The notes beneath the pieces were generated by a model. That model saw only the letters and a program-made list of their open reading frames with translations, had not been told where the DNA came from and searched no databases. The position numbers and the translations under genes are program-made. DNA of 27,137 bases from Armatimonadota bacterium (GTDB taxonomy: Bacteria; Sysuimicrobiota; Sysuimicrobiia; Sysuimicrobiales; Humicultoraceae): the NCBI GenBank assembly GCA_052386995.1, contig JBQTJP010000035.1:1-27137 (forward strand). The letters run 5' to 3'. This document shows positions 1 through 26,832 of the stretch, piece after piece (the first letter of the stretch is position 1; each line of letters begins with the position of its first letter).

Positions 1-567
1 GACGCGCATCCCCATGGCCCGGCTGATCCGCGCGACCTGGCGACCGATCGTGCCCAGGCCGATGAGGCCAACCGTCGCCCCGCGGACGTCCCGGCCGCAG
101 TACCGCTCCCACCGGCGCGCCGTCTGACCGCTCACCATGCGGAAGCCGTCCTTCGCGAACCAGAGAATCGCCATCACGACGAAGTCGGCGAGCGGCTTCG
201 CGTGGATGCCCCTGGCGGTCGTGAACGTAATTGGAGTGTGGATCAGGCCGGTGCGAAGGACAAACTGCCCAATGCCGGTGCTGGTGCCCTGGATCCATCG
301 CGCGTTGGGGACAAGATCCTTGAGCGTCTCGACGTTTGTGTGGTCAAAGTCGAACAGCACCTCGGCGTCGGCGAGATAGCGTCGCCATTGCCGCTCTTCC
401 TCAGGGGTTCGCTGCAGCGGATGACCGACGTGATCGCAGAGATATCGCGGGCGAGGGAGCAGCGCCGGCTCGTAGATGACACGGACGCCGCCAACTCGGC
501 GGATCTGCTCGACGTATTCAGGCTCCAAGAATGAGGCAATGAGCACCACGCGCCCGGGATCATCCAC
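1..567 (-). CDS. D-isomer-specific 2-hydroxyacid dehydrogenase, NAD(P)-binding (5' part; runs off the window)
   Basis: Not in the ORF track. Manual translation from GTG at 567 (GAGGG upstream): MDDPGRVVLIASFLEPEY...WIQGTSTGIG...FTTARGIHAKPLADFVVMAILWFAK...WERYCGRDVRGATVGLIGLGTIGRQVARISRAMGMRV, with the GxGxxG Rossmann motif in typical family context. Confidence 0.88.
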   Translation of the reverse strand, partial: MDDPGRVVLIASFLEPEYVEQIRRVGGVRVIYEPALLPRPRYLCDHVGHPLQRTPEEERQWRRYLADAEVLFDFDHTNVETLKDLVPNARWIQGTSTGIGQFVLRTGLIHTPITFTTARGIHAKPLADFVVMAILWFAKDGFRMVSGQTARRWERYCGRDVRGATVGLIGLGTIGRQVARISRAMGMRV

Positions 568-600
568 CTATGCGGCCCTCGAGGCCGACGCGCATCGGTG

Positions 601-1944
601 TCATGCGGGGGCAGTGTCCTGGGCGTCGCCGCAGCCGCAGGCCGGGGCAAAGTCGCAGAATCGCGACAGCCACCCGGGCTGGCAGCTGGGCAGCTCCGAT
701 GGCGGCGCGCCGGCTTCGAGGAGATCAAGGCGCCTCTGCATCTCCGCTTTGATGGCGTCCAGATCTCGAAACCAGATGTCGTACACCATGAACTTGTCAT
801 CGGGGAGAGCCGCGTAGTAGAGGATCAGCCTGCCGCGCTCCGACCCGGCCAGCGCGCATTCGAAGCCGAGCCGCTCGATGTAGTGCGGCGCATCGGCGAC
901 CAGGCGCTCGCGGCGGAACATCTCGCGGCGCTTGCTCACGCGCAGGATCGCCGGCACGTCACGGTGGAGCAGGATCGAGGCGCGCACCGATCCAAACGGC
1001 ACCCGTACGCGACGGCAGGCTCCCGGCGTGCCGTACCAGATGGCGTCCTCAAGGACGTCTGCAAACCCCCGGCGCTCCCTGGACGCCATCACGGACTCGG
1101 CGTCTTCTTCCGGACCCTCGCCCGGCTCGCCCTGCGCCGCCATCCGCGACGCGGCCTTCCGTGGGAAGACCAGGTCGTTCAGCAGAATTCGACGCCGATC
1201 GGCAGGCGGAAGCGCGCCCATGCGCTCCCGCATCAACGCCTCGAGCCCAGGGTTGCCTCGCACGACGACGGCGCCGCCCGACCCCATGCGCGCGAGCGTC
1301 ACCGCGGTCTCGCAGCCGCAGAAGCCTTCGTAGTCGCACCGTCCCCCGGTCCACTCGCAGCGCGGCAAGCCCGCGGGATCGCGGCGCTCCAACGCCTCGC
1401 GCAGGAGATCGCGGCGGCGCAGCATTTCCGCTGTGACGCGGTCCGGAGCCGTCACCTCGAGATCAAAAGCGCGCAGCATCGGCGTGCGGCCGTACTCGGC
1501 ACGCTGGTAGTAGACGAGCTGGCCGGCCGACCGGCCGACCATCACGCAGTACATGGCGATCTGCTCGACGTGGCTCGCGCGGGTGGCGATGATGTCCGAC
1601 GGGAGCGATCCCGTGGTCTTGAGCTCGATGGGCGCCTGCTCGAAGATGTCGATCTTGCCGACGATCCCCTCGTACTCCACCAGCTGTTCGACGAACTCCT
1701 CGGTGGACATCACGCGTTCGAACACGTCATGAAATCCCGTGCCGGCCATCATCGCCTGGAGGCGGCCCGGAGACGTCGCGATGTCGGGCCGCACGCGCTG
1801 GAAGTACGCCTGGCGCGGATTGATCAGATCGGTCACCGAGATCCGCCGGCGGCCGGATCGGCGGGTGATCGCGGCCACCACTTCGTCCTTGATGGACCGG
1901 TTGGCGTCGATACCCCCTGCGTAGGGACCACAAAATGCTGGCAT
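601..1944 (-). CDS. Cas4-like / PD-(D/E)XK nuclease family protein with two tandem domains
   Basis: Domain 1: ISVTDLINPRQAYF, GTGFH, GKID..ELKT, QIAMY, CEWTGGRCDYEGFCGC. Domain 2 repeats the layout (ILLNDLVFPRKA ... CQPGWLSRFCDFAPACGC) without the catalytic residues. Start uncertain (ATG 1944 or GTG 1968). Confidence 0.8.
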   Translation of the reverse strand: MPAFCGPYAGGIDANRSIKDEVVAAITRRSGRRRISVTDLINPRQAYFQRVRPDIATSPGRLQAMMAGTGFHDVFERVMSTEEFVEQLVEYEGIVGKIDIFEQAPIELKTTGSLPSDIIATRASHVEQIAMYCVMVGRSAGQLVYYQRAEYGRTPMLRAFDLEVTAPDRVTAEMLRRRDLLREALERRDPAGLPRCEWTGGRCDYEGFCGCETAVTLARMGSGGAVVVRGNPGLEALMRERMGALPPADRRRILLNDLVFPRKAASRMAAQGEPGEGPEEDAESVMASRERRGFADVLEDAIWYGTPGACRRVRVPFGSVRASILLHRDVPAILRVSKRREMFRRERLVADAPHYIERLGFECALAGSERGRLILYYAALPDDKFMVYDIWFRDLDAIKAEMQRRLDLLEAGAPPSELPSCQPGWLSRFCDFAPACGCGDAQDTAPA

Positions 1945-1997
1945 AATGGGAGATGGTGCGCCGGGCACCCCGGCGCGGGGCAGGCCTGTTTCCTCTC

Positions 1998-2027
1998 AGC
2001 CTACCGGTGGGCCCCTCCGCTTGTCAA
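1998..2027 (-). promoter_or_regulatory. Candidate sigma70-type promoter for the Cas4-like gene
   Basis: Minus strand TTGACA (2027-2022), 18-nt spacer, TAGGCT (2003-1998). Confidence 0.55.
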
Positions 2028-2063
2028 ACACCGCGTGTTTTCCCCCGTCCCCGGCGGGGAAAA
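2026..2063. repeat. Overlapping inverted repeats in the divergent intergenic region
   Basis: AAACAC-cgc-GTGTTT (2026-2040) and TTTTCCCC (2038-2045) / GGGGAAAA (2056-2063). Confidence 0.5.
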
Positions 2064-2084
2064 AGTGATCCGGAGGTGGATGCG

Positions 2085-2228
2085 ATGTTGGCATGGCTGG
2101 AAGCATGGCTCCACACGATCGTGTATGAGTACATCGACAATGAGAGCGGGCAGGATGTCATCGTCTGGCTGATCATTCTCCTGGTGATCTGGCTGATCGT
2201 CTCAGGACGGCGTCTGCTGGTCCAGTAA
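2085..2228 (+). CDS. 47-aa single-TM micropeptide A (prepilin/Flp-like leader)
   Basis: GGAGGTG SD at 2072-2078, ATG at 2085. MLAWLEAWLHTIVYEYIDNESGQDVIVWLIILLVIWLIVSGRRLLVQ. Paralogous to the next ORF. Confidence 0.8.
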   Translation: MLAWLEAWLHTIVYEYIDNESGQDVIVWLIILLVIWLIVSGRRLLVQ

Positions 2229-2299
2229 GCGCGCCGGATCTCCCGACACGCCATGATTTCTGTCTGCGTACTCCTGACATAGAAGGAGGTGAATCGGGC

Positions 2300-2443
2300 A
2301 TGCACATGCTCTTTGAGACCGCGCGTCGCGCGATCGTGCGGCACGTCGGCGACGAGGATGGTCAGGTGGATGCGCTGGTCATCGCCATCTTGATCTTCCT
2401 GTTCATCCTGATCGTCTCGGGCCGCCGCCTGTTCGTGCAGTAA
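2300..2443 (+). CDS. 47-aa single-TM micropeptide B (paralog of A)
   Basis: Not in the ORF track. AAGGAGGTGA SD at 2283-2292, ATG at 2300. MHMLFETARRAIVRHVGDEDGQVDALVIAILIFLFILIVSGRRLFVQ. Confidence 0.82.
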   Translation: MHMLFETARRAIVRHVGDEDGQVDALVIAILIFLFILIVSGRRLFVQ

Positions 2444-2489
2444 GTCAAGCATGCCGCTTGGCCGCTCTCCCTCGTCGTGCAGAAGAGGG

Positions 2490-3617
2490 CTAGTCGATCC
2501 TCTTTTGGAATCGGCGGATGGCCAGGCCGAAGACGATGAGCGCCAGCACGACCAGTGGGACGATCTGGCGCCAGAGAAACGCAAAGCCCACGCCCTTGAT
2601 CAGGATGCCGCGCACGACATTGACGTAGTACGTCAACGGGAGCGCAAGGCCAACCCACTGGAGCACGACCGGCAGCGATTCGCGCGGAAAAAGGAATCCT
2701 GAGATCAAGATGCTCGGCAGCAGCGTGAGCTGCGACAGCTGCAGCGCCTGCTGCAAGTTCTTGGAGACCGTGGAGATCAGTGTCCCAATGCCGAGCGACG
2801 TGAAAAAGAATGCCAGGGTCATCGCGTAGAGCAACAGCAGGCTGCCCTTCACCGCCACCCCGAACCACACCCATGACAGCAGCAGAATGAACGTGAGGTT
2901 GATGTACCCCAGGCCCATGAGCGGGATGATTTTCCCCAGCATCAGCTCGATCGGTTGGATCGGGGTGACGACGAGCTGCTCCAGGGTTCCCATCTCACGC
3001 TCACGTACGATCACGGTGACGCTCAAGAAGGTCGTGGTGAACTGCATGATCACGGCCAGCACGCCCGGGACGATGAACACCTGGGCCTTCAGGTCGGGGT
3101 TGTACCATGCGCGAGTCCTGACATCCACGGGCACGGGTGGAGGACGCTGCCCGCGCCGGTGGATCATCTCGACGTTGAGATCCTGGGAGAGGCGGCTGCC
3201 GATCCCCGATGCCACCGACAGCACAACCTGCGCGCTGGTCGCATCGGAGGCATCGACGACCACCATCACCGCCGTCTGCCGCCCCGAGCGAAGCCGCGTC
3301 GCATAGTCGGGAGGGATGACGACGCCGATCTTCGCCTGGCCGCCGTCCAGTCGCTGCTCGATCTCTTTCATGTTGCGGGCGTTAGTGCGGACGGTAAAGT
3401 ATCGGGTGTTCTCGAATGCCCGGATCAGGGACCGGCTCTCGGCGGTGATGGATTGGTCCCAGACAATGGTCGGTTGGTGCAGCACCTCGTTGGACAGATA
3501 CCCGTAGAGAACGAGTTGAATGATCGGCAGGCTGATCATCGTCCCCAGCGTCCGGCGGTCCCTGAGGATCTGAATAATCTCCTTCCGCATGATGCTCCAC
3601 AGACGCTGCAGGCTCAT
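2490..3617 (-). CDS. ABC-2 type exporter permease (YbhS/YbhR-like)
   Basis: MRKEIIQILRDRRTL, large extracytoplasmic loop, WYNPDL, VREREMGTLEQLVVTP, LISGFLFP, multiple TM segments. Confidence 0.93.
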   Translation of the reverse strand: MSLQRLWSIMRKEIIQILRDRRTLGTMISLPIIQLVLYGYLSNEVLHQPTIVWDQSITAESRSLIRAFENTRYFTVRTNARNMKEIEQRLDGGQAKIGVVIPPDYATRLRSGRQTAVMVVVDASDATSAQVVLSVASGIGSRLSQDLNVEMIHRRGQRPPPVPVDVRTRAWYNPDLKAQVFIVPGVLAVIMQFTTTFLSVTVIVREREMGTLEQLVVTPIQPIELMLGKIIPLMGLGYINLTFILLLSWVWFGVAVKGSLLLLYAMTLAFFFTSLGIGTLISTVSKNLQQALQLSQLTLLPSILISGFLFPRESLPVVLQWVGLALPLTYYVNVVRGILIKGVGFAFLWRQIVPLVVLALIVFGLAIRRFQKRID

Positions 3618-9128: not shown

Positions 9129-9737
9129 TCAGCGCCAGCGGGCCAGCCCGGGATCGTGGGCCAGCATCCAGGCCTCGTTGAAGCGCCAAGGCGACAGCGC
9201 CTCCGGCTCGAGGACGGCCGCCTGGCGCGTCCAACGCACAGGCTCGCGCGGATACGGCGCCCCGTTGGCCTGATGGCGCCACTTGACGTCCTGTATCAAG
9301 AACCACAGATAGAAGAGGTATGAGGAGGCGACGACCTCCGTCACTTCCATGACGCCGCCGTCGAACAGCCCAACCGGGGATTCGCCCCGGCTATCGCGTC
9401 GGTCCAACAGGAGCACGTAGGGATTGCCGGCGCCGTCGTTCCCGACTTCCACATATGATGGCAACCAGCCGATCGGTCCCCAGTAGGTCCGAGCCTGACG
9501 AGTCGCGACGACCAGATCGAGCCCGGACGGCACGGGGGGCACACCGAGGACAGGCTCGTTGACCACGAAGCCGCCATCGAAGGCGTCGAGAACGAGCCGC
9601 ATGGCTGGGGGAAACCTGACGTCGAGTTCAAACTCGGCAAGGGTGATGTCGCGGCCCGCCGCCGGCGCATTCAGCCGGACGACGCCCGCCGCGAAGAAGT
9701 CCATCTCTTTCCAGATGTCGTCGATTGTCACCGACAC
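9129..9737 (-). CDS. SMI1/KNR4 (SUKH) family protein
   Basis: PAAGRDITLAEFELDVRFPPAMRLVLDAFDGG, VGNDGAGNPYVL, VASSYLFYL match the SUKH pattern. Confidence 0.75.
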   Translation of the reverse strand: MSVTIDDIWKEMDFFAAGVVRLNAPAAGRDITLAEFELDVRFPPAMRLVLDAFDGGFVVNEPVLGVPPVPSGLDLVVATRQARTYWGPIGWLPSYVEVGNDGAGNPYVLLLDRRDSRGESPVGLFDGGVMEVTEVVASSYLFYLWFLIQDVKWRHQANGAPYPREPVRWTRQAAVLEPEALSPWRFNEAWMLAHDPGLARWR

Positions 9738-25452: not shown

Positions 25453-25731
25453 CTAGGACGGCGCCCCGGACTCCGGCGGCAGTGGGCCGTACGGACGGAT
25501 GGCGATGATCCCGTGTTTGAAGAGAAGTTCCTGCGTTCCGTTGTTTTCGATCAGGAGGCTGTAGGTGCCGAAATCCTTGACGATCGCCGACGGGATCTCG
25601 TACCCATCGCGGCAGCGGATGTACACGGGCGTGGCAGCGCCGACGAGTCTGCGGTAGAAGGCATCTTCGAGCGACGGCCGCGGCGGGGCCTTCGTCCCTG
25701 TCGGCCCGTCCGTTCGGATCTCTTCGCGCAT
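25453..25731 (-). CDS. Possible in-frame internal product: stand-alone 92-aa Hfq-like protein
   Basis: Internal GGAGGTG (25746-25740) lies 5 nt before GTG 25734 and 8 nt before ATG 25731, just ahead of the Hfq domain. Confidence 0.55.
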
Positions 25732-26676
25732 CACGGTTGCACCTCCCTGACGCTCCGGTCGAATCTCACTCATGTCGTGAATGACGTCCTCAGCGGCCGC
25801 GCCCACCGCATGGGCTTGCCAGGACTCGCCCCGCAGTGGCTCGTGCCCGGGACTTCTTGACGGTTCTTCCGTCGCCGGAGGCTCGTCCTGCGCGGCACCC
25901 GTGGGCGGAGCTTCCTCCGGGCTCGCCGGGGACCCAGCGCCCGCCTCGGCGCGGATGAGCCGCTCATAGTGCGCGCGCAAACCTTCAAACTGCTGGCGGC
26001 GATCCAACCGCACCTTGCCTGCACCTTCAATCCGGCGCGGCGGCTTTTGCGCGGCATCCATGACCGCGCCGACGACCGCTTCGGCCTCACTGGACGTCAC
26101 CGCCTCCGCACCCACGTGCAGCAGGCTCGTCCGTTCCGAAGTCAGGGTGAGGGCGGCCAGCGCCACGGCAGCGCCGGCGAATTGCATCACCGACAGGGCC
26201 TCCAGCGACGGCCGGTAGCCGCTCCGTTCGATGAGCGGACGCAGCGCCTCGACGGCCGCCAGGGCCACGGTGCGCAGGCGTTGCGACTGTCCGGGCGGCG
26301 CCTGCGCCGTCCCGGTCAAGGTCTTCTGGGCGCCTTCGCGCTCATACCGCAGCTCGACGATGACGTTGGTCATCGTCTCCGTCATCGTTTCTTCGAGCCG
26401 GACGAGCTGAGAGGCCGGGATGCGCTCGGTGTCGGGCGTAGGCTGCAGGTGGGCGATCTGAACGCGCCAGCCATCAACGGGCAGGTTGAACTGACTCATC
26501 AGCGCGGACGTAATGGCACGCCTGATCCCGCCGTCATCGCGCGCCGACTCGGTCGTGACATAGATGCGCTCGATGTCGCCGGCCTCATTCGCCACGACGC
26601 GCACCGCCGCGACGGCATCGAGCCGTTCGAGGAAGGCTTCGATCTCTTCTGCGAAAACTTCCCGGGGCACCGGCAT
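25453..26676 (-). CDS. Hypothetical protein with a C-terminal Hfq (Sm-like) domain
   Basis: C-terminal [61 protein letters not shown] aligns by eye with the Hfq helix-Sm1-Sm2 ([YF]KH) core. GGAG before ATG 26676. Confidence 0.8.
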
Positions 26677-26832
26677 TGCTCCGAGTGGGATGATTGAATG
26701 AGCCCCTCTTCTGCGGCCCGCGGAAGGTCTCCTTCCCTTACACATGACTGGTGACGCGATTCATTCAGCACGCTAATCTACTTGTGATGCGCGGGACCAC
26801 GCGCAGGTTCGGCTCCCGAAAGGAGACGGCCA

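Follow-up and report, generated by a model that had tools for sequence, protein, structure and literature searches.

What does a Cas4-like protein do when it is encoded apart from any CRISPR locus and carries its nuclease domain twice, once in degenerate form? The question is raised by a gene at the beginning of a 27,137-nucleotide stretch of an Armatimonadota genome (contig JBQTJP010000035.1 of assembly GCA_052386995.1), the whole of which we call the window. An earlier note, made from the letters alone, placed the gene at 601..1944 and read its product as a tandem of one intact and one degenerate Cas4-like domain. The open reading frame (ORF) spans 601-1968 on the minus strand, or 455 aa counted from a GTG. 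In 28 aligned homologues (alignment A1) the starts fall at the methionine encoded at 1944; the gene therefore corresponds to 601-1944 and its product to 447 aa, as the note had it. Residue numbers below are those of P0001, counted from the GTG at 1968. We propose, with a probability of roughly 0.55, that this protein belongs to the Cas4/RecB branch of the PD-(D/E)XK superfamily as a stand-alone, metal-dependent DNA nuclease whose N half would cut and whose dead C half would give structure specificity, and that it acts in DNA repair or end processing.

Both halves are predicted to have a Cas4-type fold. An AlphaFold2 model computed with an 82-row alignment (pLDDT 90.0, pTM 0.78) places residues 36-222 on the Cas4 protein SSO0001 (4ic1_A) with a Z of 16.0 and an rmsd of 2.7 A over 167 residues. 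The next structural matches of this half, at Z 9-11, are Cas4 of Cas4-Cas1-Cas2 complexes, MGME1, Exo5, AdnA, lambda exonuclease and RecE. Because the 82-row alignment covered the N half only, the C half (residues 228-455) was folded alone, giving a predicted model of pLDDT 90.4. Its top match is again SSO0001 (4ic1_B, Foldseek E 8e-7), and a comparison with all PDB representatives (VIA-align) superposes it on 4ic1_A with a Z of 11.4 and an rmsd of 3.6 A over 163 residues; the alignment extends to the end of the Cas4 chain and so takes in its cysteine module. The restriction-endonuclease-like fold is further reflected in matches of both halves to lambda exonuclease, RecE and MGME1. Since each half superposes best on SSO0001, the models bear out the shared PD-(D/E)XK fold on which the earlier reading hinged. 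A single-sequence search of solved structures gave a chance match only (E 0.38), and the family profile was needed at this level: profile A2 (82 members) retrieved 4ic1 (E 2.8e-5) and 4r5q (E 3.2e-4) among PDB sequences.

The two halves also align with each other. Residues 1-236 and 237-455 share 27% identity across 206 aa (BLASTP, E 1e-12), far above chance, which bears out the internal duplication that had been suspected. The motif pairs cited for it are all present: RISVTDLINPRQ/RILLNDLVFPRK, HVEQIAMYC/HYIERLGFEC, GQLVYY/GRLILYY and AEMLRRRDLL/AEMQRRLDLL. The N half carries G76xGFH80, E94, G104-K-I-D107, E115-L-K117 and Q136xxxY140, that is, the GxxxH, G-K-I-D...E-L-K and QxxxY motifs ascribed to the first repeat. 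At the same positions of the self-alignment the C half has A303, R319, L333, I341, R343, R366 and E370, with the pairs D107/L333, E115/I341, K117/R343, Q136/R366 and Y140/E370. The D, ExK and QxxxY residues have thus been lost from the second repeat, as the note claimed, and the PD-(D/E)XK motif survives in the N half alone (D107, E115-L-K117).

This asymmetry is found throughout the family. At E <= 0.001, a word-indexed search in which 8000 candidates were scored returned 295 homologues; the 120 matches listed are 332-472 aa long, 48-92% identical and, where named, nearly all named hypothetical. An exhaustive HMMER search over 50%-identity representatives gave 377 matches at E <= 0.001, 189 at E <= 1e-10 and 84 at E <= 1e-30, and reached full-length two-domain relatives of about 420-500 aa down to 26% identity. 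Conservation was counted in an 82-sequence alignment, whose members are 22-76% identical to the query. E94, D107, E115, K117, Q136 and Y140 are each present in 82/82 sequences, and H80 in 80/82. At the C-half equivalents the five commonest residues are L/V/P/G/T for D107 and L/I/V/A/W for E115, none of them acidic, so that the contrast between one intact and one degenerate domain holds family-wide. The equivalent of K117 is R in 51 sequences and K in 24; together with R270 (82/82) and R413, this R/K at position 343 makes up the basic set of the C half. Mean pairwise identity is 0.36 in the N half, 0.30 in the C half and 0.16 in the linker, and from these values we conclude that the dead half is still constrained. 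Ahead of the nuclease core, D21, A22, N23, R24, K27 and D28 are at least 90% conserved in alignment A1, in a region modelled as a strand (residues 17-22) followed by a helix (24-36).

From the 82 rows, 27 were picked to span clusters, and their N and C halves (27 of each) were placed in one tree with 6 single-domain relatives (IQ-TREE quick, LG+G4). The tree groups the N halves in one clade (SH-aLRT 94) and the C halves in another (95), with sub-clades in parallel; the three-way split of N, C and single-domain groups is not resolved by it. The parallel sub-clades fit a single duplication preceding the radiation of the family. We read the family as the outcome of one ancient tandem duplication, after which catalysis was lost in one copy and constraint was kept. 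Fused forms were absent from 7999 long candidates (proteins of 798-2275 aa), which is weak evidence. We also considered whether 17 short matches to the C half, 37-66% identical, might represent a split gene or a stand-alone dead half. This reading was rejected: they are fragments, of which two are labelled partial and all lie on short contigs except two that carry no contig record.

The cysteines of the family depart from the Cas4 rule. Canonical Cas4 proteins bind their Fe-S cluster through one N-terminal Cys and a C-terminal CX2CX5C. In the tandem family both repeats end in a four-Cys motif, which in the window protein has the spacings that the note had read (Table 1). In motif 1, C204 is present in 81/82 sequences and C211, C217 and C219 in 82/82; in motif 2, C429, C438 and C444 are present in 82/82 and C446 in 61/82. 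Spacing varies in the N half (Cx6Cx7CxC in 54/82, Cx6Cx5CxC in 21/82) and in the C half (Cx7Cx5CxC in 50/82, Cx8Cx5CxC in 9/82). The canonical N-terminal Cys occurs in 0/82 N halves and 0/82 C halves. Its position is held by N/D/A/E/S in the former and by Y/F and others in the latter; the window protein has N50 and F268, as already pointed out, where Cas4 has the C of CPR. When the family profile is aligned with SSO0001, the Cas4 Cys shows up as an insertion with respect to the tandem family. The rewired metal site proposed for this protein thereby gains support at the sequence level, from the missing N-terminal Cys and the almost invariant C-terminal ones.

Single-domain relatives, of about 225-240 aa, help to place this change. 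P0270 has a Cys in its N-terminal helix and CX2CX5C, and the same canonical 1+3 pattern is visible in the 4ic1 alignment. P0223 and P0236 have no N-terminal Cys and carry CX4CX2CX5C (a 0+4 pattern), the extra Cys lying in a PPC motif that aligns with LP(R/A)C of the tandem family. These patterns suggest that the ligands may have shifted in two steps: the N-terminal ligand would have been replaced by a Cys just before the C-terminal triad, and, later in the tandem family, the Cys of the final CxC would have taken the place of the first one of CX2C. By homology with Cas4, each four-Cys site, with all its ligands C-terminal, is probably the seat of a putative Fe-S cluster whose canonical N-terminal ligand has been replaced.

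A single-domain relative of the 0+4 type is also found in a genome of the window's phylum (L128:6761-7453, minus strand; 230 aa, CX4CX2CX5C). It adjoins the gene for a 373-aa RecA/DnaB-like ATPase (L128:5629-6750, minus strand), and the pair is repeated in G006:C49; this may be a mobile-element context.

The family is large and unnamed, and is found in uncultured bacteria and archaea of soils. Our genome scan yielded 41 loci, in metagenome-assembled genomes (MAGs) labelled Armatimonadetes/CSP1-3, 'Bacillati bacterium ANGP1', Candidatus Calidihabitans, Gemmatimonadales and Dehalococcoidia/Chloroflexota, the remaining labels being one Acidobacteria and unclassified 'bacterium'; the ANGP1, CSP1-3 and Calidihabitans records all belong to the window's own phylum. 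In that phylum 27/94 genomes have a match at E <= 1e-10 (15/54 of those at least 90% complete), distributed over the families that we label f1 (8/33), f3 (16/22), f4 (2/23) and f5 (0/12). In a Gemmatimonadota sample, with six candidates scored per genome, the gene is present in 6/251. These counts include the unpublished genomes G017 and G025 for the window's phylum and G371 for Gemmatimonadota. A divergent subfamily (alignment A4, 35-47% identity to its first member) was found in 126 metagenome stretches. The neighbouring genes mark its contigs as archaeal (aIF2-gamma, ribosomal protein S6e, archaeal phosphopantothenate synthetase, PurP and archaeal A24 peptidase), and the nearest ESM Atlas clusters, of 456-465 aa, are mostly from Thermoplasmatota.

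How might such a protein work? Cas4, AddB, Exo5 and lambda exonuclease thread DNA, as an end or as a single strand, past the cluster module into the active site, and RecC contributes to RecBCD a dead nuclease-like domain that guides one strand. By the same logic the N half, whose active site is complete, would cut one strand. The C half keeps the fold, the Cys module and the basic residues and has lost the metal-binding acidic residues; it is most likely a built-in non-catalytic partner. It might hold the second strand, the duplex or a phosphorylated DNA end, and this hold would make the enzyme selective for a particular DNA structure (an overhang, flap or fork, for example), in analogy to the dead domain of RecC. 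The note's suggestion that the dead domain binds substrate or a partner would thus be a reasonable one. We infer a motor-less, structure-specific nuclease acting on DNA because the fold, the active site confined to the N half and the constrained, basic dead half coincide with what is known of these threading enzymes. Repair is suggested by two gene contexts, an operon in family f3 and a housekeeping region in archaea, and by the kinds of enzymes that match best, which are DNA end-processing nucleases.

The archaeal context was analyzed in the best 80 of the 126 metagenome stretches, from a search with the subfamily alignment A4. The gene order there is a NadB-like oxidoreductase gene (minus strand), the target gene (plus), a GNAT gene (minus) and a PRPP synthase gene (minus), with aIF2-gamma and S6e further on. 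In these 80 loci the oxidoreductase cluster was detected 66 times, GNAT 52, the target 50 and PRPP synthase 45 times, the count for the target being lowered in part because the ORF caller picked opposite-strand frames at some loci. The conserved order implies that the target is a single transcription unit within a stable housekeeping region, and such a fixed neighbourhood fits a vertically inherited cellular function.

In family f3 the gene lies downstream of mrfA and mrfB. The f3 mrfA product has DEAD, Helicase_C, WHD_HRQ1 and MrfA Zn-binding (MZB) domains, and that of mrfB an RNase_H_2 exonuclease domain with TPR. In Bacillus subtilis, MrfAB is described as a pair made of a helicase and a DEDDh 3'-5' exonuclease that repairs mitomycin C damage (PMC11194089, PMC7797055, 10.1101/2025.09.15.676423). 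Flanking genes and tblastn place mrfAB adjacent to the tandem gene, or within about 6 kb of it, in 9 of the 16 gene-bearing f3 genomes (G035, G037, G038, G039, G046, G047, G049, G055 and G056). The distance to mrfB is 4 bp in L035, 12 bp in L018, about 100 bp in L019 and about 600 bp in L017, L123 and L124; the two genes overlap in L126. The linkage is looser in L023, with three genes between, and in L115, at about 6 kb. Contigs of four further f3 genomes (G036, G040, G051 and G052) are too short for linkage to be judged. In the window's genome, mrfA and mrfB lie on another contig, C72 (L211 4281-6542 and 6478-7638, both on the plus strand). That genome has a second MZB helicase on C67.

Several results weigh against a repair nuclease of the Cas4/RecB branch, or against its link with MrfAB. 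Profile scores are low: PDDEXK_1 (PF12705) gives 15.2 bits for the whole protein and 16.7 for the N half, with a curated cut-off of 22, and the Cas4 model TIGR00372 gives 20.1 bits (E 4.4e-4, N half only) with a cut-off of 65. Three f3 genomes with adequate flanks (G044, G050 and G053) have no linkage, nor was any seen in the f1 and f4 loci examined, so that the association is limited to one family of one phylum; the nine linked genomes, moreover, are kin, and amount to one evolutionary observation, not nine. The window locus has no adjacent mrfAB, and the target gene is absent from the 1 kb of C72 that remains after mrfAB. Co-presence is uninformative, since MZB helicases occur in 88/94 genomes of the phylum and the tandem gene in 27/94. 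One Gemmatimonadales and one Dehalococcoidia genome that bear the gene have no MZB helicase at all. The patchy bacterial distribution (27/94 and 6/251), finally, would also suit an accessory or defence gene.

Obligate dependence on MrfA was rejected, given the two gene-bearing genomes in which no MZB helicase was found.

PADLOC matches the protein with its Cas4 models (E 1.4e-5, N half only) and with no others; PF01930 gives zero matches to the window protein at E <= 10, and the C half has no match in NCBIfam or Pfam. Of 22 divergent relatives (15 two-domain, 7 shorter), seven exceed the PDDEXK_1 cut-off (P0150, 32.7 bits; P0223, 30.6; P0236, 28.1; P0270, 26.4; P0159, 24.6; P0219, 24.2; P0259, 22.5). 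The protein is Cas4-like, but lies outside the Cas4 family by model score, ligand pattern and cas context, and seems to fit the wider PDDEXK_1 group.

A patchy distribution leaves room for a role in defence. The protein would then be a stand-alone nuclease directed against phages or plasmids: a solo Cas4-like effector degrading the ends of invading DNA, alone or with an unlinked partner. The uneven occurrence in the window's phylum and in Gemmatimonadota speaks for it, as does the restriction of PADLOC matches to Cas4 models. Other Cas4-family enzymes are described in defence, such as ACE1, which works with Argonaute (PMC12094033), and the closest single-domain relatives and Atlas clusters are partly viral. 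In three related loci of the 41 (L001, L003 and L020), an AbiEi-antitoxin-like regulator of 209 aa, followed by a glucose/sorbosone dehydrogenase, is found 3' of the homologue, as the first or second gene downstream; a PIN gene lies nearby in L023. However, neither a conserved defence partner nor a defence island came to light in the 41 genome loci and the 80 metagenome loci. Apart from mrfAB in f3, no neighbour is common to the 41 genome loci across lineages: they include two-component regulators, a Ser/Thr kinase, acyl-CoA synthetases, an M23 peptidase and sugar transporters. In the window, the gene has an ABC efflux operon and a dehydrogenase for neighbours, and the archaeal subfamily keeps its fixed housekeeping neighbourhood. 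The gene is also single-copy, its two halves have diverged along parallel lines, and nothing points to rapid turnover. On balance we consider a defence function unlikely.

The repair reading may be taken further. The protein may be a self-contained pseudo-heterodimeric nuclease with two rewired iron-sulfur modules of four C-terminal Cys each, one half threading and cutting a single strand and the dead half clamping the complementary strand or a 5'-phosphate end. It would then be a third, hitherto overlooked component of the MrfA-MrfB lesion-repair pathway, supplying an endonucleolytic or 5' incision beyond the reach of the 3'-5' exonuclease MrfB, and would have become unlinked from mrfAB in lineages such as that of the window. 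We consider this scenario quite doubtful.

An enzyme acting on RNA, or a non-enzymatic protein that keeps the nuclease fold for nucleic-acid binding or redox sensing, is very improbable. The weaker structural matches, at Z of about 5, do include RNA 5'-end enzymes of this fold (DXO/Rai1) and the cap-binding eIF3d, and two metal clusters could serve in sensing; but every match at Z >= 9 is a DNA nuclease, and the D/E/K/Q/Y set, present in 82/82 sequences, argues for catalysis. Least credible of all is a Cas4 serving CRISPR adaptation in trans, with cas1-cas2 encoded elsewhere, a reading that we rejected: Cas4 proteins are indeed the top structural and profile matches, but Cas1 was not found in the window's genome (93.16% complete), a Pfam scan of 26 window ORFs detected no cas gene, nor did the scans of neighbouring genes at other loci, the score is far under the Cas4 equivalog cut-off (20.1 vs 65 bits) and the Cys ligand pattern is non-canonical. 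The absence of neighbouring cas1/cas2 reported in the earlier note is thereby upheld, and its preference for a non-CRISPR role is strengthened.

Comparison with known systems indicates that the tandem protein is an architectural variant of a known enzyme kind, whose function we infer. Cas4 (SSO0001, 4ic1; Pyrobaculum Pcal_0546, 4r5q; type I-C Cas4, 8d3l) has the same PD-(D/E)XK core with the RecB motifs D, ExK and QxxxY, and shares with it the N-terminal VTDL..PR helix and the Cys-rich C-terminal module, besides being the best structural match of both halves and the best profile match. The tandem protein differs in having two domains per chain, the second dead, four C-terminal Cys in place of CX2CX5C, no N-terminal Cys in any of the 82 sequences, scores under the Cas4 cut-offs, and neither cas genes around it nor Cas1 in its own genome. 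The nuclease domains of AddB, AdnA, AdnB and RecB, and RecC, also have the same fold, with an Fe-S-type module in the same place (AdnA 7sjr_A, Z 10.2; RecC 7mr1_C, Z 6.1), and RecBCD, as is generally known of RecC, likewise combines a working nuclease with an inactive nuclease-like domain by which a strand is guided. In contrast to these domains, which are appended to helicase motors in proteins of at least 1000 aa, the tandem protein has two nuclease folds in 447 aa and no motor. The window's genome has one strong PDDEXK_1 match, a 1081-aa frame on C23 that corresponds to an AddB/AdnA-type protein.

Solo-Cas4 and Cas4-like PF12705 genes are described beyond CRISPR loci in bacteria and archaea from the environment, and roles in defence or repair are proposed for them (PMC5704561; Hudaiberdiev et al. 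2017). The proteins described there are single-domain, unlike the tandem protein, and the words 'tandem' and 'duplicat' have no occurrence in the main text of that paper, supplements aside. Two PD-(D/E)XK domains in one polypeptide are described for the cytoplasmic-incompatibility factors CinB/CidB (10.1101/2025.03.04.641471). The structural match to these is weak (7esy_B, Foldseek E 2.1e-2, probability 0.41), with no sign of kinship. They belong to toxin-antidote operons of Wolbachia and, to our knowledge, have no Cys clusters. The tandem gene directly follows mrfA-mrfB in f3 and is homologous to neither MrfA nor MrfB (YprAB); the linkage is absent from the window and from other phyla. The text of a survey of the YprA family, supplements aside, has no occurrence of 'Cas4' (10.1101/2025.09.15.676423). 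A full-text literature search found no description of a tandem Cas4-like architecture, so that a previously characterised family with this organization did not come to light.

Features of the gene and its upstream region are collected in Table 1. Scans for promoter and terminator consensus sequences over window positions 1-2700, and for Rfam families over 1-3000, returned no site and no match, respectively. Among 14 runs looked up for expression, no RNA data set was listed.

Table 1. Positions of the tandem Cas4-like gene, its parts and a nearby sequence element in the window
Feature	Position	Strand	Description
Tandem Cas4-like protein gene	601..1944	-	447 aa; ATG at 1944, stop at 601-603; from ORF listing and alignment A1
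N-terminal strand and helix before nuclease core	1861..1944	-	Residues 9-36; GIDANRxxKDE motif
N-terminal intact Cas4-like PD-(D/E)XK domain	1288..1860	-	Residues 37-227; H80, E94, D107, E115, K117, Q136, Y140
Four-Cys motif 1	1312..1359	-	C204-x6-C211-x5-C217-x-C219; putative metal (Fe-S or Zn) site of the active domain
C-terminal dead Cas4-like domain	604..1287	-	Residues 228-455; L333, I341, R343 at the D, E, K positions; R270 invariant
Four-Cys motif 2	631..684	-	C429-x8-C438-x5-C444-x-C446
Weak promoter-like element 5' of the gene	1998..2027	-	TTGACA-18 nt-TAGGCT; by eye, under the scan threshold; a lead only

The gene is followed, 33 bases 3', by the start of a same-strand 2-hydroxyacid dehydrogenase gene. 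On its 5' side lie 545 bases of reduced G+C (0.60 over 2001-3000), then an ABC-2 permease gene ending at 2490. The other window genes scanned are of a housekeeping kind: a TetR-OEP-HlyD-ABC efflux operon, PurR, an IspE-like kinase, KsgA, MeaB, methylmalonyl-CoA mutase and carboxylase subunits.

The intergenic stretch 5' of the nuclease gene contains, on the opposite strand, two paralogous 47-codon ORFs (2088-2228 and 2300-2443, plus strand). Both have a Shine-Dalgarno-like GGAGGTG in front, a hydrophobic segment and SGRRL(L/F)VQ at the end, and their products could be small membrane peptides; the first begins at an internal methionine of a 91-aa ORF (1953-2228). Elsewhere in the window, the sole Pfam signal of a 430-aa ORF (25453-26745, minus strand) is a weak Hfq match at residues 361-419 (23.6 bits, cut-off 27), which may reflect either an ORF called too long or an Hfq-like domain preceded by a long N-terminal extension. 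A 202-aa ORF (9129-9737, minus strand), located between purR and the TetR-efflux operon, has a weak, sub-cut-off match to SUKH-1 (SMI1/KNR4; E 6.4e-4); SUKH domains are frequently found as immunity proteins.

Uncultured microbes commonly encode nucleases of the Cas4 family beyond CRISPR loci, few of which have an assigned role. The tandem family offers a clean case of ancient duplication in which one copy has lost catalysis and is still constrained, and in which the metal ligands of the Cas4 cluster appear to have migrated, with intermediate patterns persisting in single-domain relatives. If the dead half does make the enzyme structure-specific, the pairing of active and dead nuclease domains in RecBCD would have here a minimal counterpart that lacks a motor. 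If the link to mrfAB is true, a poorly understood pathway of adduct or crosslink repair would gain a nuclease that has been missing from it. Being small and predicted with high confidence, the protein is also biochemically tractable.

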